NCBI GenBank assembly: GCA_965237475.1
Contig: OZ250140.1
Coordinates: 1,763,549-1,827,548 of the forward strand
Length of the DNA stretch: 64,000 bases
Source of the DNA: Dehalococcoidia bacterium
GTDB lineage: Bacteria > Chloroflexota > Dehalococcoidia > Bin125
Direction of reading: 5' to 3'
Under the pieces are notes generated by a model. The model had not been told where the DNA came from, did no database searches, and saw only the letters and a program-made list of their open reading frames with translations. Shown here one piece after another: positions 1,403 through 31,233 of the stretch. Position 1 is the stretch's first letter, and each line of letters starts with the position of its first letter. A program made the position numbers and the translations under genes.

Positions 1403-3304
1403 ATGACCGAGCACTCTCAGCCCGAATACGAAGTCGTCATCCAGCGCAACCGCGCTGTGCCCATGCGCGACGGCGTGCGCCTCGCAACCGATGTCTACCT
1501 GCCCGCGAGTGACGGCAAAGCGATCGACATCGCCTTCCCCACGATCCTGACCCGCACGCCGTACGACAAGAGCCCCAAGTCGGTCATCCTCGACGGTGAA
1601 TGGTGGGCCCGCCGCGGCTACGCCCGCGTGATCCAGGATGTGCGCGGCCGCTTCGCCTCCGAAGGCGACTTCTATCTGCTCAAGAACGAAGCCGAAGACG
1701 GCTACGACACGGTCGAGTGGCTTGCCGAGCAGCCCTGGTGCGACGGCCAGGTCGGCATGGTCGGCACCTCCTACCTCGCCTGGGTGCAGTCCGCCGCCGC
1801 CACCCAGAATCCGCCCCACCTCGCGGCGATGTGGGTCAATCAGGGCGCGTTCAACGGGCTCAGCTCATCGCTGCGGCAGGGCGGCGCGATCGAGCTGCGC
1901 TGGCTCGCCTGGGCATTCTGGAACGCCCCGGTCTCGCCCGAAGCCGAGGCCGACCCGATCCTCTACCAGGCCCTCGACCGCGCCGCCGTCGACCTGCGCG
2001 CCTGGCTCGCCCGCCTGCCCTGGCGCCCCGGCGACACACCCCTCTCGCTGACCAGGGACTACGAACGCTGGGCCATCGACCTGCTCACCCAGGCGACCGA
2101 GCAGGACTGGCTCTGGCAGCTCCCGAGCATGAACTTCGAGCGCTTCATCGACCAGACCGCCGACGTGCCGACGGTCTACAGCGGCGGCTGGTACGACTCC
2201 TACACGCGCGCCACCACCGAGTCCTTCGCCGCCTTCAGCCACGCCAAGGCGTCGCCGCAGTACCTGTTGATGGGTCCCTGGACGCACGGCGACGAACCGC
2301 TCGACCGCAGCTGGTCGGGCGATGCCGACTTCGGCCCCACCGCGCCGACCAGCGGCAACCTCGCCGAGAGCGTCCCGCACCTGCGGCTCCAGTTCTTCGA
2401 CCACGTGCTCAAGGGACTGCGTTCCGGCTGGGACCACGTCGCCCCGGCGCGCATCTTCGTGATGGGCGGCGGCAGCGGCCGGCGGATCGCCTCCGGCCGC
2501 ATCGACCACGGCGGCGCGTGGCGCGACGAGCAGGAGTGGCCGCCGGACCGCGCCGAGACGCACAGCTGGTACCTGCACGTCGACGGTTCGCTGCAGCCGG
2601 CGAAGGCCGCAGCCGGCGCCGCCGCCTCGCAGTACGACTTCGACCCGCGCCGACCGGTGCCCTCGATCTCGGCCAATGTCTCCTCGCTGCGGGAGTACGC
2701 GCCGCCCGACCCCGGCCTCAAAGACGGCATCTGGCCGCCCACGATTCGATCCCGCGAGCTGATCCAGCCCGGCGGCGCAGACCAGCGCGAGCGCCCCGAC
2801 GTGATGGGCGCAGAGCCGCCCTGGCTCCCGACCGCCGCCCGCAGCGACGTGCGCTCGTTCCGCACCGCCCCGCTCGACGCCGACCTGGAAGTCACCGGCC
2901 CGGTCACCGTCACGCTCTGGGTCTCGACCGATGCGCGCGACACCGATCTCACCGCGATCCTGCTCGACTGCTACCCGCCCAGCCCCGACTATCCCGAGGG
3001 CTACGCCCTGCGCCTCAGCGACAGCATCAAGCGGCTCCGCTTCCGCCTCGGCGCAGAGCGCGAAGACCTGGTTCGTCCCGGCGAGGTCGTCGAAGTCCCG
3101 ATCGAACTCTATCCCACCAGCAATCTGTTCGCCAGCGGACACCGCATCGGCGTCGAGATCAGCAGCTCCAACTATCCCCGCTTCGACATCAATCCCAACA
3201 CCGGCGAACCGATCGGCCAACACACCCACACCAAGGTGGCAAGAACCAAAATCTGGCACGATGCCAGCCACCCCAGCCGCATCGACCTCCCGGTCGTGGA
3301 ATAG
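1403..3304 (+). CDS. CocE/NonD family hydrolase (X-Pro dipeptidyl-peptidase S15-like)
   Basis: 633 aa. RDGVRLATDVYLP...TRTPYDK...GYARVIQDVRGRFASEG...VGMVGTSYLAW is the CocE/NonD alpha/beta hydrolase signature, with a C-terminal beta-sandwich. Confidence 0.8.
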   Translation: MTEHSQPEYEVVIQRNRAVPMRDGVRLATDVYLPASDGKAIDIAFPTILTRTPYDKSPKSVILDGEWWARRGYARVIQDVRGRFASEGDFYLLKNEAEDGYDTVEWLAEQPWCDGQVGMVGTSYLAWVQSAAATQNPPHLAAMWVNQGAFNGLSSSLRQGGAIELRWLAWAFWNAPVSPEAEADPILYQALDRAAVDLRAWLARLPWRPGDTPLSLTRDYERWAIDLLTQATEQDWLWQLPSMNFERFIDQTADVPTVYSGGWYDSYTRATTESFAAFSHAKASPQYLLMGPWTHGDEPLDRSWSGDADFGPTAPTSGNLAESVPHLRLQFFDHVLKGLRSGWDHVAPARIFVMGGGSGRRIASGRIDHGGAWRDEQEWPPDRAETHSWYLHVDGSLQPAKAAAGAAASQYDFDPRRPVPSISANVSSLREYAPPDPGLKDGIWPPTIRSRELIQPGGADQRERPDVMGAEPPWLPTAARSDVRSFRTAPLDADLEVTGPVTVTLWVSTDARDTDLTAILLDCYPPSPDYPEGYALRLSDSIKRLRFRLGAEREDLVRPGEVVEVPIELYPTSNLFASGHRIGVEISSSNYPRFDINPNTGEPIGQHTHTKVARTKIWHDASHPSRIDLPVVE

Positions 3305-3475
3305 CCGCTCGTCCCCCGTTCCAATCGCCGACCGACGCCAGCGGCGGAGGGCGGTCAGGACAGCAAGGGCGCCGCGACCCCCTGCATATTCGTCCAGATG
3401 CAATGCGTCGACGCCAGTAGGAGCCCTCTATTGCTCGCAATTGTTAGTCACTTATCGTAACTTGGCGTTGAGCGG

Positions 3476-4738
3476 ATGGTCGTGCACATGAACGAGCGGC
3501 TGATGGAGCGGCGTGAGCGAGAACTCCGGCTCGGCGAGGTCTTTACGCCGTCTGCCCCGATCGATCGGCTGCGTCTGTTCGCGGGGCGTGATCAGCAGCG
3601 CCTGGCTGTGTTGGACGCCATTCTGCAACGCGGCCGGCACGCCGTGCTATTCGGTGAGCGTGGAGTCGGAAAGACCTCGCTCGCCAGCATCTTGCGTGAG
3701 TATCTGGAAGACGCGGGAGAATCCGTCATCGCACCCCGCGTCAACTGTGACGACGGCGACGATTATTCGGCGATTTGGCGCAAGGCCTTCGACGACCTGC
3801 AGTTCACCGTGCAACGTCGCAGCATCGGATTTGCGGCGCAGATCGAGGAGGTCGTCCACACGGCGAATGACATGCTTGGCGCGAGTGACCCCATCACCCC
3901 GCACCAGGTGCGCCTCTTGCTCGAACAGCTCGGGGCTCATGCGGTGCTGGTCGTGATCATCGACGAGTTTGACCGCGTCGCCGCTCGGGTCGGCACGCAG
4001 TTCGCCGACACGATCAAAATGCTGTCCGATCAGTCCGTGCCAGCCACCCTGGTGCTGGTAGGCGTTGGGCAATCCGTTCGATCGCTCATCGTTGAGCACG
4101 AGTCAATCGAGCGGGCGCTGGCGCAGGTGCGCATGCCACGCATGTCGATCTCGGAGCTGCAACAGATCGTGGACGGTGGGCTTGCGGAAGTCGACATGAC
4201 CGCGGCGATGGATGCGCGGGACCGGATTGCAGTGCTGTCGCAGGGTTTGCCGCACTACACGCATCTGGTCTCGCTGTATGCAGCTCGTCATGCAAACGAC
4301 GCTGAATCGCTTGTGGTGCGCGCATTGGATGTCGCCGCAGGAGTCCGTGAGGCGGTGGCCAATGTTCAAGAGACCATCGCCACGACGCATCACCGCGCTG
4401 TGATGAGCGCCCGGGCCGATTCGCTGTATCGCCAGGTTGCTCTCGCCTGCGCGCTCACGAACACAGACGAGTTGGGCTACTTCACCGCGACGTCCGTTCG
4501 AATCCCGATGGCCGCCATCATGGGCAAGCCCTACGCGATTCCCGCGTTCGCGAGGCACATGACTGAGTTTTGCGGCGATCAGCGCGGCGCCATCCTTGAG
4601 AAGATTGGAACACGCCGCAACTATCGCTATCGGTTCCGCAACCCGCTGCTGCCGCCCTACATCGTGATGAGCGGCATCGCGAACGGGCTGATCGCCGATG
4701 GAGACGCGGCCCGGATCCAGAACGCGTCGAGCGACTGA
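3476..4738 (+). CDS. AAA ATPase of the Arch_ATPase (PF01637-like) family, function unknown
   Basis: 420 aa. FAGRDQQRLAVLDAILQRGRHAVLFGERGVGKTSLA (Walker A) and VLVVIIDEFDRV (Walker B). AT-rich leader with palindromes upstream. Alternative ATG at 3488. Confidence 0.6.
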   Translation: MVVHMNERLMERRERELRLGEVFTPSAPIDRLRLFAGRDQQRLAVLDAILQRGRHAVLFGERGVGKTSLASILREYLEDAGESVIAPRVNCDDGDDYSAIWRKAFDDLQFTVQRRSIGFAAQIEEVVHTANDMLGASDPITPHQVRLLLEQLGAHAVLVVIIDEFDRVAARVGTQFADTIKMLSDQSVPATLVLVGVGQSVRSLIVEHESIERALAQVRMPRMSISELQQIVDGGLAEVDMTAAMDARDRIAVLSQGLPHYTHLVSLYAARHANDAESLVVRALDVAAGVREAVANVQETIATTHHRAVMSARADSLYRQVALACALTNTDELGYFTATSVRIPMAAIMGKPYAIPAFARHMTEFCGDQRGAILEKIGTRRNYRYRFRNPLLPPYIVMSGIANGLIADGDAARIQNASSD

Positions 4739-4757
4739 TGCCGGCGCATCGCCGTGC

Positions 4758-5129
4758 CTAGCCGAGCAACCCCCACGCTCGTTGCATGCGCTTCGGCAGG
4801 CCTGCCGCCACCAGGCGCCAGGAGTCCTCGATCAGCTCTTCCAGCTCGTCGTCGGGCATCTCGCCGTTGAGCTGAACGGCGATCCAGTGCTGCTTGCTCA
4901 GATAGGCCGGGCTGCTGACCGACTCGTACTTGCCATGCAGCAGCGGCACGAGCGCCGGGTCGACCTTGATGCTGATCCCGCTCTGCTCCGTCGTCCCGCC
5001 GCCGAGGAAGCAGAAGATCTTGCCCTTCCCGGCCGGCCCGAGCTTGTAGACGAGGTCGTCTTCCCAGGGCGTGTCAGGCCACGCGCCGGGCAGCGATTCG
5101 CACAGCGCCTCGACCTGCTCACGGTCCAT
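4758..5129 (-). CDS. MmcQ/YjbR family DNA-binding protein
   Basis: 123 aa. Sequence pattern of the YjbR/MmcQ family (…KGKIFCFL…HWIAVQLNG…). Confidence 0.75.
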   Translation of the reverse strand: MDREQVEALCESLPGAWPDTPWEDDLVYKLGPAGKGKIFCFLGGGTTEQSGISIKVDPALVPLLHGKYESVSSPAYLSKQHWIAVQLNGEMPDDELEELIEDSWRLVAAGLPKRMQRAWGLLG

Positions 5130-6112: not shown

Positions 6113-7390
6113 TCAGGCTTCGGCGCTGGTCAGGTTCTCGAGGAACTCGATGTTGGTCTTGGTCCGGGCCAGCCGGTCGAGCAGCCGCTCGGTCGGCTCC
6201 GTGCTGTTGCCGCCCGAGCCGGCCAGCACCGACATCATCCGGCGCAGCAGCCACATGCGCTGCAGCTCCTCGCCCGAGAGCAGCAGCTCCTCGCGGCGCG
6301 TGCTGCTCGCGGCGATGTCGATCGACGGGTAGATGCGCCGCTCGGAGAGCTTGCGGTCGAGCCGCACCTCCCAGTTGCCGGTGCCCTTGAACTCCTCGAA
6401 AACCACGTCGTCGAGGCGGCTGCCGGTGTCGACCAGGCAGGTCGCGATGATCGTCAGGCTGCCGCCCTCTTCGGCCTTGCGCGCCGAGCCAAAGAAGCGC
6501 TTCGGCGGGTAGAGCGCGACCGGGTCGATGCCACCCGAGAGCGTGCGACCGGTCGAGGGCATTTCGAGGTTGTAGGCGCGCGTCAGCCGCGTGATCGAGT
6601 CGAGCAGGATCACCACGTCGCGGCCCATCTCCATCAGCCGCTTGGCGCGCTCCAGGCCCAGCTCGGCGCAGCGCGTGTGATCTTCGACCGGCTCGTCGAA
6701 CGTCGAGGCGACCACTTCGCCGCGCACCGTGCGCCGCATCTCGGTGACTTCCTCGGGGCGTTCGCCGATCAGCACGACCATCAGGTGTACGTCGGGGTGG
6801 TTGGTGGCGATGCCGTTGGCGATCGCCTGCAGCAGCATGGTCTTGCCGGCCTTGGGCGGCGAGACGATCAGTCCGCGCTGCCCGCGGCCCATCGGCGCGA
6901 CGAGGTCGATCACGCGGCCCGAAAGCTCGCTCGGATCTTCGCTCTCGATCGTGAACCGCTGGTGCGGGAAGACGGCGGTCAGCGTCTCGAAGTGGGGCCG
7001 CTGCCTGGCCAGCTCGGGCTCGGCACCGTTGACCAGCACCGCGTCCTGCAGGCCGTAGTACTTCTCGCCGCTCTTGGGCGGGCGGACCGGGCCGATCACG
7101 TAGTCGCCGCTGCGCAGGTCGTGGCGGCGCACGTGCGCCTGCGAGACGTAGACATCGGTCGGCGCGGGCAGCAGCGATTCGCCGCGCAGGAAGCCGTAGC
7201 TGTCGTCGACGACTTCCAGCACGCCGCCCGAGAGCACGTTGCCCTCGGCCTCGCTCTCGGCCTGCAGGATGCGCAGGATGATGTCCTGCTTCTTCAGGCC
7301 GGTGAGGCCGCGAACCTCCAGTTCGCGGGCGCGCGTGAGCAGCTCATCGCGCGTATGGGACTCGAGATCGGTGATGGTCAGGGTCGTCAC
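6113..7390 (-). CDS. rho: transcription termination factor Rho
   Basis: …[15 protein letters not shown]… at the N-terminus, P-loop [12 protein letters not shown] and [20 protein letters not shown] at the C-terminus. Likely GTG start at 7390 with AGAGGT upstream; the ORF continues to an ATG at 7447. Confidence 0.9.
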
Positions 7391-7575
7391 GGCTACCTCT
7401 GATTGCCGACGCTGCGTGCTGCGTGGAAGAGCTGCGCGCGAACGCACGGCGGGACACTGATGCGGTCATTGCTCAACGGTGAGACGGAGCGGCCCGCGGA
7501 ACGAAGTTGCGAGACTGATCGTATGCGACTCGTGCGCTTGCCTGCAAGCACCCGCGCGACACGGGTCACAGAGCA

Positions 7576-10798: not shown

Positions 10799-11686
10799 TC
10801 AACGCCCGATCCGGGCGAGCGCGTCGCGCAGAATCGCGGCCCCGGCCGATCGAACACCGCGTGAGTTGGGCGCCCCGCCCATCGGGTAGGGAAAGAGCGT
10901 GGCGAAGCGTGAGAGGCTGATGGCGAGGGCCTGCGCGCGGGCGGCTTCGGGCCCATCGGGATCGCAGCCACGCCAGAAGGTCGCGGCCTCGCCGCGCGCC
11001 GCAGCGAAGGCCTGCGCCGCGCGCGCGTGGCCCTGCGGTTCGATCGGGTCGTCGCCGGCAAGGATCGAGATCCAGCGCGCGGTGTTGACGGCCGAGGCGG
11101 AAGCGGTCGCTGCAGCCGCCGCAGCCGCCGTGTCCCGCAGCGAGGCGGCGTCCTCCGGCTCATCGGCGCCGAGGCGGATGATCACGAGCGGCACGGAGCT
11201 CTGCAGTTCGTCGTAGGGCAGCCACGGACCAACCTGGTCCGTCATCTGTCCGTCGCGACGCCAGGCGCGCCGATCGTCATCGAACCCGACGATCAACCCG
11301 AAGGTCGGCCCGAACGGATCGAGGCCCGCACGGGCTGCCACGATCGGTCGGCCGGCCGCGAGCTCGCCGCGCAGGCGGCGGCGGAGCAATCGCCAGCTCA
11401 GGCCGGCCGGCGGCTCGTCGCGGCGCGTCACATCGATCCCGACACCGAGCGCGCCGAGGCCCTCCGCCAGCCTGCCGGGCAGCTCCAGCGGGTCCGGCTG
11501 CGGCTCGAACCAGACGCCCTCCACGGGTTCCGTCGGCACCGGCGGCGGCGCGCCGGCGACGCCGCTGAGCGCGCAGACCACGGCGCTGTCGACCTCGCGT
11601 CCGATCGCCCGCAACGCGCCGACGAGGCTGCCGACGAGCGGGTTCCAGTTATATTCGTATTGGGCCTCCACCAGCCGCCGAGCCAC
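10799..11686 (-). CDS. hypothetical protein
   Basis: 295-aa ORF with consistent GC3 bias, packed between the ThiS-like gene and the divergently transcribed M16 peptidase. No family recognised. Confidence 0.4.
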   Translation of the reverse strand: MARRLVEAQYEYNWNPLVGSLVGALRAIGREVDSAVVCALSGVAGAPPPVPTEPVEGVWFEPQPDPLELPGRLAEGLGALGVGIDVTRRDEPPAGLSWRLLRRRLRGELAAGRPIVAARAGLDPFGPTFGLIVGFDDDRRAWRRDGQMTDQVGPWLPYDELQSSVPLVIIRLGADEPEDAASLRDTAAAAAAATASASAVNTARWISILAGDDPIEPQGHARAAQAFAAARGEAATFWRGCDPDGPEAARAQALAISLSRFATLFPYPMGGAPNSRGVRSAGAAILRDALARIGR

Positions 11687-19337: not shown

Positions 19338-19808
19338 ATGCCCACGAAGGAACTGTTTGGCCGCTACCTCGAGCAGTTTGAGGTCGGCGAGGTGATCGAG
19401 CACTGGCCCGGCCGCACGGTCACCGAGGCCGATGACCTGATGTTCTGCATGCTGACGATGAACCATCACCCACTGCATACGAACCTCGAATACGCCGAGG
19501 GCACGCAGTTCGGCCAGCGCGTGGTTTCGGGTCCGTTCGTCTACTCGCTGGTCTTTGGGATGACCGTGCCGATGATCAGCGGCAAGGCGATCGCAAATCT
19601 CGCGACGAACGACCTGCGGCACACGGCGCCGGTCTTCCACGGCGACACGCTGACGGCCCGCACGGAGGTCACCGGCATCCGCGAGTCACGATCGCAGCCC
19701 GACCGCGGGATCGTGACGGTCAACACGACCGCCCAGAATCAGCACGGCGAAACCGTGTTAGAGTTCACTCGTGCCGTCATGATCCCGAAGCGGCCGGATG
19801 GTGAGTGA
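19338..19808 (+). CDS. MaoC-family (R)-specific enoyl-CoA hydratase/dehydratase
   Basis: 156 aa. Hot-dog fold pattern ...NHHPLHTNLEYAEGTQFGQRVVSG... Confidence 0.8.
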   Translation: MPTKELFGRYLEQFEVGEVIEHWPGRTVTEADDLMFCMLTMNHHPLHTNLEYAEGTQFGQRVVSGPFVYSLVFGMTVPMISGKAIANLATNDLRHTAPVFHGDTLTARTEVTGIRESRSQPDRGIVTVNTTAQNQHGETVLEFTRAVMIPKRPDGE

Positions 19809-20233
19809 TGATCGAAATCAACTCGGGCTCGGACCTGGAACGCTCAGTTGTGCGTGTCGGCAAGGCGCTCGGCCTGGACGTGGAGACGCAAGTCGTCATG
19901 GGCGACCGCATCTGGGGCCCGCGCCGCCACGTTGATGTGGTGCTGAGCAAGACTGACTCCGATCGAATCATCGGCATCGAGTGCAAGTACCAGCGCCAGT
20001 CGGGCTCGGTCGAAGAGAAGATTCCCCTGACGGTCGAGGACATCGAAGACTGGCCGATTCGGGGCATTGTCGTCGTCCACGGCGAGGGCTTCTCGCGCGA
20101 CTTCGTGCCCTTCCTGCGGGGCCGAGGTCGGATCGTGGAGTTCAAGCGCCTCGCCGAGTGGTTGCGCTTCTATTTCCGCCTGTCACGCGAGCGCGCGCTC
20201 CAGGCCGAGATGCTGCTCAACGGCGACTCCTAG
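19805..20233 (+). CDS. small PD-(D/E)xK nuclease, putative type II restriction endonuclease
   Basis: 142 aa. RRHVDVVLSK...RIIGIECKYQ gives a D...(E)xK motif. The start overlaps the MaoC stop (ATGA). The 3' end overlaps the convergent Dam-like methyltransferase by 4 nt. GC is lower than in the neighbours. Confidence 0.5.
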   Translation: MMIEINSGSDLERSVVRVGKALGLDVETQVVMGDRIWGPRRHVDVVLSKTDSDRIIGIECKYQRQSGSVEEKIPLTVEDIEDWPIRGIVVVHGEGFSRDFVPFLRGRGRIVEFKRLAEWLRFYFRLSRERALQAEMLLNGDS

Positions 20234-21066
20234 CCAGCTCGAATCAGGTACTCGGGCACGGGCTGGCGACCGTTGCTGTTGGAGTTGATCGCGCGCCGCG
20301 CTGCGACCTCCGCCAGCACGAACGCTTCTGACCGATAGAGCGCCGCCACATCGGGATGCCCGGAGTTGGACAGCGCCACCGCCGCTCCCTGGCGCGCCAG
20401 CGACTCGGCCGTCGTCGCGAGGCGTTGCTGATCCGCCAGACGGAACGCTGCGGAGGTGTACGACGTAAAGTTCGCCGTCGTGCTGAGCGGCACGTAGGGC
20501 GGATCGAAGTAGACGAAGTCGCCTGTGCCGGCCTCAGCGGCCGCCTCCGTGAAGTCCCCGACGCGTAGCTCCACCCTGGACAGCGCCTCCGAGGCAGCGC
20601 GCAGATTCGGCTCATCGCAGATCATCGGCTTGGCATAGCGGCCGTGGGGCACGTTGAAGCCGCCGCTGCTGTTGACACGGTAGAGACCGTTGAAGCATGT
20701 CTTGTTGAGGAAGATCAGGTTCGTCGCGCCGCCCAGGTCGCAGGTCAGCCGCTTGGCGCGGATGGTGTAGTAGTACTCCGCCCGCGCCTCGCCCTCGCGC
20801 GACCGGTACTTCCCCTCATGGACCCGCAGCGCGTGGACTAACTCCTCCACGTGATCGCGGACCTGGATGTAGGCGTTGATCAGCTCAGCGTTGCTGTCGG
20901 ACAGCACCGCACGCTTGAAGCGCCCCTGCGCCTGCAGCGCGAAGAACAGCGCTCCACCGCCCACGAACGGCTCGTAGTAGGTCTCGATCTGCGCGGGCGC
21001 GGCCTGCAGCAGCTCCGCGAGCAGTTGCGTCTTGCCGCCGGCCCATTTGACGAATGGTCGAGCCAC
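20230..21066 (-). CDS. Dam-like N6-adenine DNA methyltransferase (alpha class)
   Basis: FVKWAGGKTQLL...YYEPFVGGGALFF...NGLYRVN..GFNVPHGRY...DFVYFDPPYVPLSTTANFTSYT is colinear with E. coli Dam and DpnM. Confidence 0.85.
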   Translation of the reverse strand: MARPFVKWAGGKTQLLAELLQAAPAQIETYYEPFVGGGALFFALQAQGRFKRAVLSDSNAELINAYIQVRDHVEELVHALRVHEGKYRSREGEARAEYYYTIRAKRLTCDLGGATNLIFLNKTCFNGLYRVNSSGGFNVPHGRYAKPMICDEPNLRAASEALSRVELRVGDFTEAAAEAGTGDFVYFDPPYVPLSTTANFTSYTSAAFRLADQQRLATTAESLARQGAAVALSNSGHPDVAALYRSEAFVLAEVAARRAINSNSNGRQPVPEYLIRAG

Positions 21067-21871: not shown

Positions 21872-22552
21872 ATGCCGCCACAAGCAACAAACATCATCGC
21901 GACGATCGACGCGGAGGTCTCGGCCTGCCGCGCCTGCGAGCGACTCGTGGCCTGGCGCGAAGGCGTAGCGGCTGAGAAACGCGCGGCGTTCCGCGACGCC
22001 GAGTACTGGGGCCGTGGAGTGCCAGGCTTCGGGCCGGCCGACGCGCGGGTCTGGGTCGTGGGGCTCGCGCCCGCGGCGCACGGAGCGAACCGCACGGGGC
22101 GGATGTTCACCGGCGATCGCTCGGGCGACTGGCTCTACCGCGCGATGCATCGGGCGGGGCTGGCGAACCAGGCTGAGAGCACGGGGCGCGACGACGGGCT
22201 GGAGCTGGTCGGAGCGCGCGTGACATCGGTCGTGCGCTGTGCGCCGCCCGACAACAAGCCGACGATCGCCGAGCGTGACCGCTGTCTGCCGTTCCTGGCG
22301 CGCGAGCTGGCTGCACTCCCGGAGCTGCGTGTGATCGTGACGCTCGGCGCCTACGCGTGGGAGAACGTGGCGCGCCAGTTGGGCATCCGCCCGCGGCCCA
22401 AATTCGGGCACGCTCGGGAGACGCTGACCGAGCGTGGGCCGATTGTGCTCTGCTCCTACCACCCGAGCCAGCGCAACACCTTCACGGGCAAGCTGACGGC
22501 GCCGATGCTGGGCGCGATCTTCGCCCGTGCCGCGGAGCTCGCCGGGCTCTGA
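21872..22552 (+). CDS. uracil-DNA glycosylase superfamily protein (family 4/5, Fe-S type; GLAPAAHG motif)
   Basis: CRACERL..., VVGLAPAAHGANRTGRMFTGDRSGDWL, CAPP...TLGAYA. Start chosen at MPPQ (21872) to avoid overlap with the divergent membrane-protein gene. Confidence 0.75.
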   Translation: MPPQATNIIATIDAEVSACRACERLVAWREGVAAEKRAAFRDAEYWGRGVPGFGPADARVWVVGLAPAAHGANRTGRMFTGDRSGDWLYRAMHRAGLANQAESTGRDDGLELVGARVTSVVRCAPPDNKPTIAERDRCLPFLARELAALPELRVIVTLGAYAWENVARQLGIRPRPKFGHARETLTERGPIVLCSYHPSQRNTFTGKLTAPMLGAIFARAAELAGL

Positions 22553-29507: not shown

Positions 29508-29584
29508 GGGCCCTTAGCTCAGTTTGGCAGAGCAGCGGACTTTTAATCCGAAGGTCCTGGGTTCGAGCCCCAGAGGGCCCACCA
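29508..29584 (+). tRNA. tRNA-Lys (anticodon UUU)
   Basis: Cloverleaf by eye: acceptor GGGCCCT/AGGGCCC, D-arm GCTC...GAGC, anticodon loop cTTTTaa, T-arm CTGGG-TTCGAGC-CCCAG, discriminator A and an encoded CCA. Confidence 0.85.
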
Positions 29585-29657
29585 CTTCCGGCTTCTGGGG
29601 CGGAATTGCGAAGTGCTCCACAGGCCGCCACGGCAGACGGAGCTGGTTTCACCCTTG

Positions 29658-30956
29658 CTAGGCCCTGCCGCCCGGTAGCGTGGGAGTCCAAAGGCCTGGG
29701 TTCGAGCCAATCAAGTCTTGGACGACGTCGTCCGCATTGAGGCTGCCGGCTTGAACAAGAGCCCATTGCCTGTACAGGTCTGTGGTTTGAATAAAGACAG
29801 CTTCGACTGTCTCAGCTGCCTGTGCGACGTTGGAATCAGGCGATTGCCGAGACGACGGGTCCGTTCGCCGAAATGGGTTCCAAATCCACAGGGTCAGATC
29901 GGGCGGGTTGCCCTTCTCGGCGCTGTAGCGCACTCGGTATTCCCCAATTTGGCGGTTGTCGCTTGTTCTCGTTCCGTTGGTGTAGCCCTTTATCTCGGCG
30001 ATGGCTTCCCAGCCGGAGAGTCCTGCGATGGTAAGACGCAGGTCTTCGCGTTTCCGCTCATTCGGCTTGAGCCCAGCATCCATGTTCTCCACAATAAAAT
30101 CCAGGTCCTGAAGGATCTCGCACACGACGGCAACCAATTCGTCACCGTCTTCCCAGATCGCACGTCTGATCCCTCGATCGGCTCTATCACTCGCAGCCGC
30201 TAGGTCAGTCTCGAGTCGCTGCCGCTCGTCGTCCAGCTGCTCGATTTCACCCTCGATCCCGGCAATTCTCTCTGCCAGTGCGTTCTCCTCCGGTGCGTAC
30301 CAGTCGGATGGTTTGCTGAGGCGAGGCGGTGCCTGCGGGACTCTGACAGGGTCGCTCTCATGGACATCGGTCAGGAATGCCCTGAACCACTCTCCTAGGT
30401 TGCGCACTGCTGGGAGAATTAGGGCAATGTCATTGTCTTCTGGGATGGGCACCCTTCTCGACGCTCGTGGAACGCGAAGGAGCAGTGCCACTGGGCGGCG
30501 TGACGTCGTTTCCACTAGAGCAATCGAGTCGCCTTTGCGCCCTCCCCGAGCGGTGATGACCGGAGGTGCCGTTGGTGCGCTGCTGAGAATTCGATTCAAC
30601 TCCGCAGCAAGAGTCATATACGCGTCCGGGCAGTTGGCGGCGACGGTCATCTCCCTCTCAGTATTGCGGGTATGCATGTGTGCGAGCTCGCGATATTGAG
30701 GAGGGGCGGCGTTCAGGCTTAGAACATCCCTGCCAAAACTCATGGGCCCGATCGTCAAGAGATGAACTCCCGCATCGATTCGATTGTGATCGAACGCTGT
30801 AGCAACAGCCACATCTGTTTCAGACCAGCTGTGGGTCTGGAGGTAATCCCCTAGCGAGGCCGCTGTCCTCAGATCCCCGCACAGCGGACGTATTGCGTCG
30901 ACTTGGGAGTCATTCAGCCCGATGGCCGCGACCCTGGGCCGCCTGATCTTCGTCAT
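29658..30956 (-). CDS. hypothetical protein of the tRNA-Lys islet (N-domain, coiled coil, C-terminal PD-(D/E)xK-like motif)
   Basis: 432 aa from the ATG at 30956 (GGAG RBS); the ORF track begins at a TTG at 31013. Low GC (~55%) against a ~68% background. Central heptad-rich segment EENALAERIAGIEGEIEQLDDERQRLETDL. C-terminal LQDLDF...GWEAIAEIKGY is D...ExK-like. Confidence 0.5.
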   Translation of the reverse strand: MTKIRRPRVAAIGLNDSQVDAIRPLCGDLRTAASLGDYLQTHSWSETDVAVATAFDHNRIDAGVHLLTIGPMSFGRDVLSLNAAPPQYRELAHMHTRNTEREMTVAANCPDAYMTLAAELNRILSSAPTAPPVITARGGRKGDSIALVETTSRRPVALLLRVPRASRRVPIPEDNDIALILPAVRNLGEWFRAFLTDVHESDPVRVPQAPPRLSKPSDWYAPEENALAERIAGIEGEIEQLDDERQRLETDLAAASDRADRGIRRAIWEDGDELVAVVCEILQDLDFIVENMDAGLKPNERKREDLRLTIAGLSGWEAIAEIKGYTNGTRTSDNRQIGEYRVRYSAEKGNPPDLTLWIWNPFRRTDPSSRQSPDSNVAQAAETVEAVFIQTTDLYRQWALVQAGSLNADDVVQDLIGSNPGLWTPTLPGGRA

Positions 30957-31217
30957 GCGCTTACTCCGGGCGTTTCGCGCGCCAAGTTGCTCTACGGCGT
31001 GGATTGCCCACAAGGAATTCTACGCGAAGTATCGGTCTGTCCTCGCTCGTTCGCGAGATTATCTCCAGTTCCAACGCCTGGTCGGCAGTCAGCTCCGCGG
31101 AGTCGCGCGCTCGGCCGTTCTCGATGCTCACGAGGCATCGGCGGTGCGGACGGTAAGTGTGTGCGGTGGGGCGGCGGTCGTCGGGCGGGAACGCGCGATC
31201 GGGGGTGGTGGCTAGGC

Positions 31218-31227
31218 GGGGGGGGGG
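31218..31227. repeat. G10 homopolymer inside a G-rich tract, 7 nt past the crp/fnr stop
   Basis: ggcgGGGGGGGGGGttggg, with gggggtggtgg just upstream (31201-31211). Confidence 0.7.
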
Positions 31228-31233
31228 TTGGGA

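Follow-up and report, generated by a model that had tools for sequence, protein, structure and literature searches.

A predicted FokI-like nuclease gene at a variable tRNA-Lys integration site in a Dehalococcoidia genome, a candidate single-protein defence effector

The nuclease gene and its expression signals

The window analysed here is a stretch of 64,000 nt from contig OZ250140.1 of a Dehalococcoidia bacterium, and positions given without a locus label refer to it. The subject of this work is a complete coding sequence (CDS) at 29658..30956 on the minus strand, with its stop codon at 29658-29660, which encodes a protein of 432 aa and lies next to a tRNA-Lys gene. It was found that this gene occupies a slot of which the content varies among strains of one species, and that the C-terminal part of its product is predicted to adopt the fold of a PD-(D/E)xK nuclease. 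A first-pass annotation of the DNA had put the protein forward as a candidate novel single-protein defence effector, and the fold and the hotspot context reported below agree in supporting this proposal, with the defence role being drawn from the context.

The CDS at 29658..30956 is intact and retains all of the residues that are invariant in its family, and its translation from the ATG codon matches exactly the protein quoted in the first-pass annotation. A longer open reading frame (ORF) that starts from a TTG codon extends over 29658..31013 of the minus strand. The choice of the ATG at 30956 as the realistic start is supported by three observations. An alignment showed that the N termini of the homologues all start with M-x-x-x-(R/K)-(R/K)-P-R-V-A-A-I-G; a GGAG ribosome-binding site (30964..30967, minus strand), 7 nt upstream of the ATG, is kept in nearly all homologous loci; and a -10-like hexamer, TAGAAT (31017..31022, minus strand), is present as a putative promoter element about 61-66 nt upstream of the ATG. 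A comparison of upstream regions showed that a TAnnAT box is found at this position in many of the homologous loci, and because this -10-like element is located about 60 nt upstream of the ATG, the TTG codon lies at or before the likely transcript start. A generic sigma-70 scan upstream of the nuclease gene returned no promoter.

An ORF for 56 aa that begins with GTG (30961-31131, minus strand) ends 4 nt before the ATG of the nuclease gene, and its stop codon overlaps the spacer that follows the ribosome-binding site. It had no Pfam hit and no counterpart upstream of the homologues, and is probably not a gene. In a subset of six homologous loci (L002, L006, L010, L015, L022 and L023), a CTTGAC(C/T)GAGC...GTA box was seen at about -130 to -40 from the ATG, together with an imperfect palindrome that straddles the -10-like element, as in L022 (CACAGGCCGCATCTTAAGATGCGGCCTGTG). 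The box and palindrome may constitute an operator for a repressor in these six loci; they are absent from the allele in the window.

A variable slot at the tRNA-Lys gene

The tRNA-Lys(UUU) gene (29508..29584, plus strand), which was the sole Rfam match in the window, is convergent with the nuclease gene and lies 73 nt from its stop codon. Its 3′ end is the proximal boundary of a strain-variable cassette of 1.56 kb (29585..31145) and is the site of integration. Low GC is seen from 29585 up to about 31100. The nuclease gene has a GC content of 0.59 and a GC content at third codon positions (GC3) of 0.64, compared to about 0.68 and 0.82-0.93 for its neighbours, and so the description of a lone gene on a low-GC, tRNA-associated islet was confirmed.

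An empty version of the site is present in a more distant relative (L028; its Crp regulator is 65% identical), in which the whole gene order is kept and only 17 nt separate the Crp stop codon from the 3′ end of the tRNA-Lys gene. Eight further contigs (L029-L036) have a Crp gene in the same 90%-identity cluster as that of the window and flanks that are about 94% identical in DNA sequence, and none of the eight contains an intact nuclease gene. In these same-species strains the slot holds other cargo, which is either a Gp49/HigB-like and HTH_37 pair plus a 322-aa protein of no assigned function or an AbiJ_NTD3 protein. The nuclease gene is present at this slot in L026 and L027, and in L027 an AbiJ_NTD3 gene (Pfam E 5e-38) lies between the nuclease allele and the tRNA gene. 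In alignments with the sister strains, homology to the window ends at about 31145 and restarts exactly at 29585, immediately after the 3′ end of the tRNA gene. An att-like direct repeat of the tRNA 3′ end (16 of 18 matches) is found at the distal edge of the cassette in L029 and L031; no distal att repeat was found in the window.

Traces of earlier occupants were also seen. L029 (positions 7075-7404), L033 and L035 contain a frameshifted 80-codon remnant of the 3′ end of a nuclease homologue; downstream of it come the 73 nt that also follow the gene in the window and a degenerate att copy of the 3′ end of the tRNA gene. Therefore, the nuclease gene was once present at these loci and was largely deleted when another cassette arrived, and the remnant locus has the appearance of a fossil left by successive insertions of cassettes at tRNA-Lys.

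The window allele is itself a mosaic. Relative to L026, the flanks and the 200 nt upstream of the gene are 93-100% identical and the first ~400 nt of the gene 83-94% identical, and the identity then drops to 54-74%, or about 65%, over the remaining 900 nt, the 3′ two-thirds of the gene. In the protein, identity to the syntenic alleles is 73-84% over residues 1-135 and 56-67% over residues 136-432, and this second part is no closer to them than to unrelated members of the family. Judged from these identities, the simplest explanation would be recombination inside the gene near codon 136, with an approximate breakpoint at 30540..30560 (minus strand). The window slot is a variable hotspot, and this is the strongest new evidence in the analysis.

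A 19-nt stretch of the tRNA-Lys T arm (29551-29569) recurs 139 nt away at 29690-29708, within the 3′ end of the nuclease gene, with 17 of 19 matches including 14 nt that are exact (CCTGGGTTCGAGCC), where it encodes the G-S-N-P-G of a conserved PGLW motif. This repeat could be due to chance or be a relic of recombination. It was considered as an att site and set aside, since it shares sequence with the codons of the conserved PGLW motif and could not be shown to act as an att site.

The 322-aa protein is encoded at the tRNA-proximal position of the slot in L029 (7703-8668, minus strand) and L030 (7054-8019, minus strand), and a relative with 41-43% identity is found in the L003 defence island (4033-4989, minus strand). 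It is unannotated and had no Pfam hit. Its N-terminal sequence '...SPDALLTDG..(x)..AIEIKQL' resembles another PD-(D/E)xK motif, and its alleles at a single locus are merely 68% identical, a mosaic behaviour like that of the nuclease gene.

A large family of unannotated relatives

The protein is a member of a large, unannotated family. A word-indexed search recovered upwards of 320 relatives that are full-length, at about 428 aa, and have 48-67% identity, and an exhaustive search gave 818 cluster representatives (50%-identity clusters) at E<=1e-3, mostly from Chloroflexota. Every name recovered for these relatives was 'hypothetical protein'. The hosts comprise Dehalococcoidia, Tepidiformaceae and other Chloroflexota, Acidimicrobiia, Bryobacterales (Acidobacteriota) and one gammaproteobacterial metagenome-assembled genome (MAG), and the distant relatives align chiefly across residues 175-425. 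No homologue was found by tblastn in plasmid and phage collections, and a search of the viral folds in BFVD gave nothing significant (best E 6e-3, to the nuclease fold only).

Sequence and profile searches of Pfam, NCBIfam, PADLOC, PHROGs and the PDB with the 432-aa protein returned coiled-coil noise only, which for Pfam was sub-threshold and left no other match at E<=10. This bears out the view of the first-pass annotation that the protein belongs to no named family, and the comparison with PADLOC models that it had recommended matched no family. One distant relative (P0243) had a match to the Pfam model Mrr_cat with E 9e-4 and 19.8 bits, just below the cutoff of 21. The counts of residue conservation given below are based on 116 close and 73 distant relatives.

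A C-terminal PD-(D/E)xK domain similar to type IIS cleavage domains

An AlphaFold2 model was calculated with 116 homologues and had a mean pLDDT of 87.4. Its C-terminal domain, residues 265-417 (29706..30164, minus strand), contains the α-β-β-β-α-β core of the PD-(D/E)xK superfamily in the canonical order, consisting of helix 271-284, strands 287-291, 306-310 and 317-323, helix 334-348 and strand 354-359. A Foldseek search with the model matched FokI with a probability of 1.0. The highest values in the structure-search table were for FokI (12.8), the nickase N.BspD6I (11.5), the small subunit of R.BspD6I (10.7) and HindIII (10.5), followed by AF1548 (9.4), Hna (8.7), Can2 (8.1) and NucS (7.7). 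The table is given without residue ranges; the order of secondary structure elements and the alignment of motifs agree that these matches should cover the C-terminal domain.

The putative active site, assigned from conservation, consists of D293, E304-D305 and E321-I-K323 (29988..30080, minus strand). Among the 73 distant relatives, E304 is present in 72, D305 and E321 each in 71, D293 in at least 71 and R370 in all 73. In the model, E304 and D305 immediately precede strand 306-310 and E321-x-K323 forms part of strand 317-323, which is the placement of motifs found in PD-(D/E)xK enzymes. The family invariants D333, N360 and R370 follow just downstream of the active-site span, and G324-Y325, G328 and P367 are also nearly invariant in the close and distant relatives. 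At position 323, 43 of the distant relatives have K and 26 have R.

The D-(x)n-E-x-K arrangement proposed in the first-pass annotation was right in one part and wrong in another. The E321-I-K323 portion was correct, but the aspartates of 'QDLDF' (D284 and D286), which had been taken as the upstream acids, vary freely among the relatives. The conserved acids are instead D293 (in 'NMD') and E304-D305 (in 'KREDLRLT'), the latter falling inside the 27 aa that the annotation had skipped. Structure prediction, which had been suggested there as a means of refuting a nuclease, gave the canonical core and conserved acidic and lysine residues.

The sequence of the FokI cleavage domain used as a query was confirmed against 1fok and 2fok (E ~1e-130). 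In the hhalign comparison, which was not significant, the FokI sequence 'RKPDGAIYT...VIVDTKAYSGG' aligned in register with 'RKREDLRLT...AIAEIKGYTNG' of the window protein, and D450, D467 and K469 of FokI were paired with E304(/D305), E321 and K323, respectively. The local active-site motif is thus that of FokI, the closest known system together with the related type IIS enzymes N.BspD6I and R.BspD6I (small subunit), and both a structural likeness to the FokI catalytic domain and residues equivalent to its D...D-x-K were found. No significant match was obtained to the curated Pfam or NCBIfam models of the PD-(D/E)xK clan, and homology at the sequence level was detected neither with FokI nor with a curated Pfam model. 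The model therefore presents an intact PD-(D/E)xK active site like those of type IIS cleavage domains, a link that is one of fold and not of sequence family.

Other type IIS features are absent. FokI must dimerise to cut both DNA strands, and the coiled coil of the window protein (described below) could supply the dimer. Unlike FokI, the window protein has no FokI-type DNA-recognition domain; its N-terminal domain is similar to class I glutamine amidotransferases (GATase1) and ThuA and is not winged-helix-like, and it is joined to the nuclease domain through a coiled coil. Furthermore, no methyltransferase is present in the cassette or conserved beside the homologues, and D293, E304, D333, N360 and R370 are additional invariants of the window family. 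By predicted fold, the C-terminal domain is a member of the PD-(D/E)xK superfamily, nearest to the type IIS enzymes, and it falls in no curated sequence family.

The N-terminal domain, linker and coiled coil

Residues 1-201 (30354..30956, minus strand), of which 8-201 make up the folded part in the model, are predicted to be an α/β domain with a GATase1/ThuA-like (flavodoxin-like) fold, and we propose that it serves as a sensor or regulator. The first-pass annotation had recognised no motif in this region, which holds for sequence families, in which no match was found, but not for the fold. The structural neighbours are non-catalytic GATase1-like proteins. The domain differs from the class I glutamine-amidotransferase-like superfamily in lacking a conserved Cys-His-Glu triad and a sequence-family match, and from the members of the non-catalytic branch (ThuA-like proteins, STM3548 and the IFT52 N-terminal/GIFT domain) in that none of these carries a nuclease domain. 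In the wider family, C26 is replaced by F, V or A and C109 by L; because no Cys is conserved, the domain is not a glutaminase, and this candidate function was rejected. A CheY receiver was also rejected, as no phospho-acceptor pattern is conserved. The residues that are conserved in the domain are P7, R8, E46 (E or D), D48 (71 of 73 distant relatives), E102, P182 and W190.

Residues 61-135 are the most variable stretch of the family, with a median identity of 0.38 compared to 0.52-0.58 elsewhere. Judged by sequence, a variable N-terminal part and a conserved C-terminal part would be the arrangement commonly seen when a variable sensor is coupled to a conserved effector.

The N-terminal domain is followed by a proline-rich linker, residues 202-221 (30294..30353, minus strand), with the family consensus DPxRVPQAPPRLSQPSDWY, in which P207 and W219 hardly vary across the superfamily. 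Residues 222-261 (30174..30293, minus strand) form a long helix that we propose as a dimerisation coiled coil with about four conserved heptads. The heptad coiled coil described in the first-pass annotation is a single helix in the AlphaFold model, with weak coiled-coil matches in Pfam and a periodicity of 3.5-3.6 residues, and its a and d positions (227, 231, 234, 238, 241, 248 and 252) are hydrophobic in at least 90% of the 116 homologues.

An N-terminal domain of this variability is also what would be expected if the protein were a Type IV-like, modification-dependent restriction enzyme, in which the N-terminal domain would directly recognise phage DNA that is modified or hypermodified and the FokI-like domain would cut nearby. 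A methyltransferase would be unneeded in this case because the host DNA lacks the mark, in agreement with a solitary nuclease in a cassette without a methyltransferase gene, and cleavage domains of the type IIS kind are normally tethered to a separate recognition domain. Solitary combinations of a nuclease with a reader have been published, namely, the END nucleases (PMC12191111) and CMoRE (PMC12923530). None of the modified-base readers that were looked for (SRA, EVE, YTH, winged helix and inactive EndoIII) was found in the N-terminal domain by sequence or by fold; a reader without precedent would still be conceivable. We regard modification-dependent restriction as rather unlikely, if credible; it would be a special case of the sensor-gated endonuclease proposed below and does not contradict it.

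Genomic behaviour of the homologues

In 20 GTDB genomes, the nuclease gene itself was the sole conserved gene at the loci, and no conserved partner gene or flanking repeats were found outside the syntenic genomes; models of an operon or a transposon were therefore dropped. The GC content of the homologue was below that of the flanks in 22 of 23 loci, and 3 of 20 copies were frameshifted or truncated. tRNA genes were found within about 600 nt of the homologue at five independent sites, relative to an estimated chance expectation of about 0.4 in 20. These were tRNA-Lys in the window, tRNA-Lys in a Tepidiformaceae group, a duplicated tRNA-Pro, three tandem tRNA-Gln genes and tRNA-Val.

In L009/L025, tRNA-Pro genes at ~3280-3358 and ~11501-11582 bracket an 8-kb island with DndB, NYN, PhyH and a Cache-domain protein, and in L016 tRNA-Gln genes are located at 7144, 7974 and 9626, with a Fic/SoFic gene between copies. 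The duplicated or triplicated tRNA genes around these islands are consistent with repeated integration at tRNA genes.

The neighbourhoods were evaluated by scanning 120 neighbouring ORFs, obtained with a crude GC-frame gene caller that was validated on three loci, and by context look-ups. Recognised defence-type neighbours were found in about 8 of 21 non-redundant loci, as a raw count. In L003, a Type IIG restriction-modification (R-M) enzyme lies 86 nt upstream of the homologue and an HKD-Snf2 helicase downstream. The other neighbours recorded were PDC-S15 (L002), DndB and NYN (L009/L025), a UvrD/GajB-like helicase (L011), Fic/SoFic (L016), a PIN toxin-antitoxin pair (L023), Uma2 (L010) and AbiJ_NTD3 (L027). 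The family thus recurs in hotspots or beside defence genes, although the size of the enrichment is approximate. The first-pass annotation would have abandoned a defence role if the homologues lay uniformly in housekeeping contexts, and they do not, having no conserved neighbour, low GC, adjacent tRNA genes and the defence loci just listed.

Many loci do have housekeeping neighbours, and part of the wider family has K323R, as might be expected of a housekeeping nuclease for repair or recombination (NucS- or RecB-family-like) or of a dead enzyme retained as a DNA-binding or scaffold protein. A housekeeping repair function is unlikely because the presence of the gene varies within one species and its codon usage is foreign; moreover, a related genome has an empty site, pseudogenised copies and remnants exist, and the gene jumps between phyla. 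A dead enzyme is opposed by the near invariance of the acidic active-site residues. We therefore consider either form of this explanation to be very improbable.

The mobility of the gene could instead be that of a selfish nuclease that spreads or persists by cutting genomes without it and gives no benefit to the host, as would a free-standing endonuclease of the homing type or an addiction module. Single-gene islets, a cassette without an integrase or transposase, a location that is sometimes between housekeeping genes (LepA/EF-G in L017), a patchy distribution, low GC and the gene-conversion-like mosaicism would all fit such an element. However, a homing enzyme is expected at one cognate site and the insertion sites vary widely among genomes, and unrelated cargo in the same slot, with an att-like repeat derived from the tRNA at its edge, points to movement of the cassettes by an integrase. 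For these two reasons the selfish explanation is the less likely one. It is further opposed by the lack of homologues in the phage and plasmid collections and by the size and build of the protein, since known homing endonucleases do not resemble a chain of 432 aa that combines a sensor-like domain with a coiled coil. Overall, we judge it quite improbable.

Proposed function

Because this slot is occupied by toxin-antitoxin and abortive-infection genes in sister strains, the gene is probably a new single-protein anti-virus defence. We propose that it encodes a stand-alone, mobile DNA endonuclease, dimerised by its coiled coil and gated by a sensor domain, that acts as a single-protein defence against phage or other invading DNA, and we assign this reading a probability of roughly 0.55. 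The nuclease fold is well supported by the model, whereas dimerisation, the DNA substrate, gating by the N-terminal domain and the defence role are inferred.

In the proposed mechanism, the gene, with its own putative promoter and a ribosome-binding site, would be cargo of a rapidly turning-over tRNA-Lys integration hotspot. Two chains would pair through the four-heptad coiled coil (residues 227-252), which would bring together two FokI-type PD-(D/E)xK domains, each cutting one strand, to give a double-strand break. The non-catalytic N-terminal domain would keep the nuclease inactive, or off self DNA, until an infection cue is perceived, and this cue could be a protein of foreign origin, a small molecule, or DNA with some unusual or modified feature.

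Several results weigh against this proposal. The family has no characterised homologue, and its role in defence is taken from context. No family among the PADLOC-DB 2.0 models (Shedu, Septu, Abi, Gabija, Hna etc.) was matched by the window protein or by five diverse relatives, and the profile comparison with the FokI domain had an E-value of only 0.077 and a probability of <1%. The catalytic Lys is replaced by Arg in about one third of the distant relatives, which is unusual for active PD-(D/E)xK enzymes. The pTM of the model was 0.56, and therefore the relative placement of the domains is uncertain; no signature of ligand or DNA binding is recognised in the N-terminal domain. More than half of the examined loci have housekeeping neighbours only, e.g., LepA/EF-G (L017) or FAA-hydrolase genes, and so the defence-island signal is moderate.

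An effector of a different kind is also conceivable. An abortive-infection or toxin protein, once triggered, would degrade the nucleic acid of host and invader (DNA and possibly RNA) and kill or arrest the cell. The slot is common to HigB/HigA-like and AbiJ-like cargo, the L023 copy adjoins a PIN toxin-antitoxin pair, and there is no self-protecting methyltransferase. Against this, no signal maker (a cyclase or CRISPR locus) or antitoxin gene is conserved adjacent to the homologues. The present data do not separate an abortive effector from direct restriction, nor do they separate activation by a phage protein or small molecule from a Type IV-like reading of modified DNA, and we hold the abortive form to be unlikely.

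A sensor-gated defence nuclease would have company among known systems. Shedu, of which the SduA protein carries DUF4263, Hna, which carries a helicase, and Can2/Card1 are solitary nuclease-plus-sensor examples. Can2/Card1 proteins, in which a CARF domain is joined to a PD-(D/E)xK nuclease as an ancillary to type III CRISPR, differ from the window protein in several respects: the latter has no CARF signature, its N-terminal domain resembles GATase1/ThuA more than CARF, a coiled coil acts as spacer between the domains, and no CRISPR locus or cyclase is conserved near the homologues. END nucleases combine a PLD (BfiI-like) nuclease with an inactive EndoIII domain and are likewise missed by PADLOC and by DefenseFinder (PMC12191111), and CMoRE contains a GIY-YIG nuclease (PMC12923530). 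The window protein resembles END, CMoRE, Shedu SduA and Hna in being a single polypeptide with a variable sensing domain and a nuclease, in having no methyltransferase and in being found in defence islands or hotspots. It shares with these systems and Can2/Card1 no domain family beyond the generic nuclease fold, and no PADLOC model of END, CMoRE, Shedu SduA or Hna matches it.

No description was found in the literature of a GATase1/ThuA-like domain joined via a coiled coil to a FokI-like nuclease. It is possible, and we suggest this only tentatively, that the protein is the founding member of an undescribed and widespread family of single-protein immune nucleases in which a GATase1/ThuA-like sensor gates a coiled-coil-dimerised FokI-type module. 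If so, its architecture and sensing principle would be absent from the current defence catalogues, and it would be the first link between the glutamine-amidotransferase-like fold and the sensing of infection. It would also extend these catalogues, which are drawn largely from Proteobacteria and Firmicutes, to phyla that they hardly cover, with Chloroflexota and Acidimicrobiia and, among these, uncultured lineages associated with sponges and soil. Genome engineering makes wide use of just one type IIS cleavage domain, that of FokI, and a distant relative with a built-in dimeriser could be of practical use as a natural self-dimerising FokI-like scaffold. The locus is a compact natural case of cassette turnover at a tRNA gene, with an empty site, alternative cargo, a remnant and a mosaic allele, and would be useful for the study of how single-gene defences move without an integrase of their own.

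Other features of the window

A run of 10 G residues on the plus strand (within 31213-31232) lies just past the stop codon of the Crp-like regulator in the conserved flank, and its equivalent in the sister strains is a variable C/G-rich tract. At 19808-21066 (19891-21149 in L001), a gene for a D12-class N6-adenine methyltransferase (278 aa) overlaps a 141-aa PDDEXK_11 gene by 4 nt. These two genes have native codon usage, are located about 8.6 kb from the nuclease gene and may represent a small pair for R-M or repair. Close to this pair, at ~21872-22552, lies a UDG-family gene.

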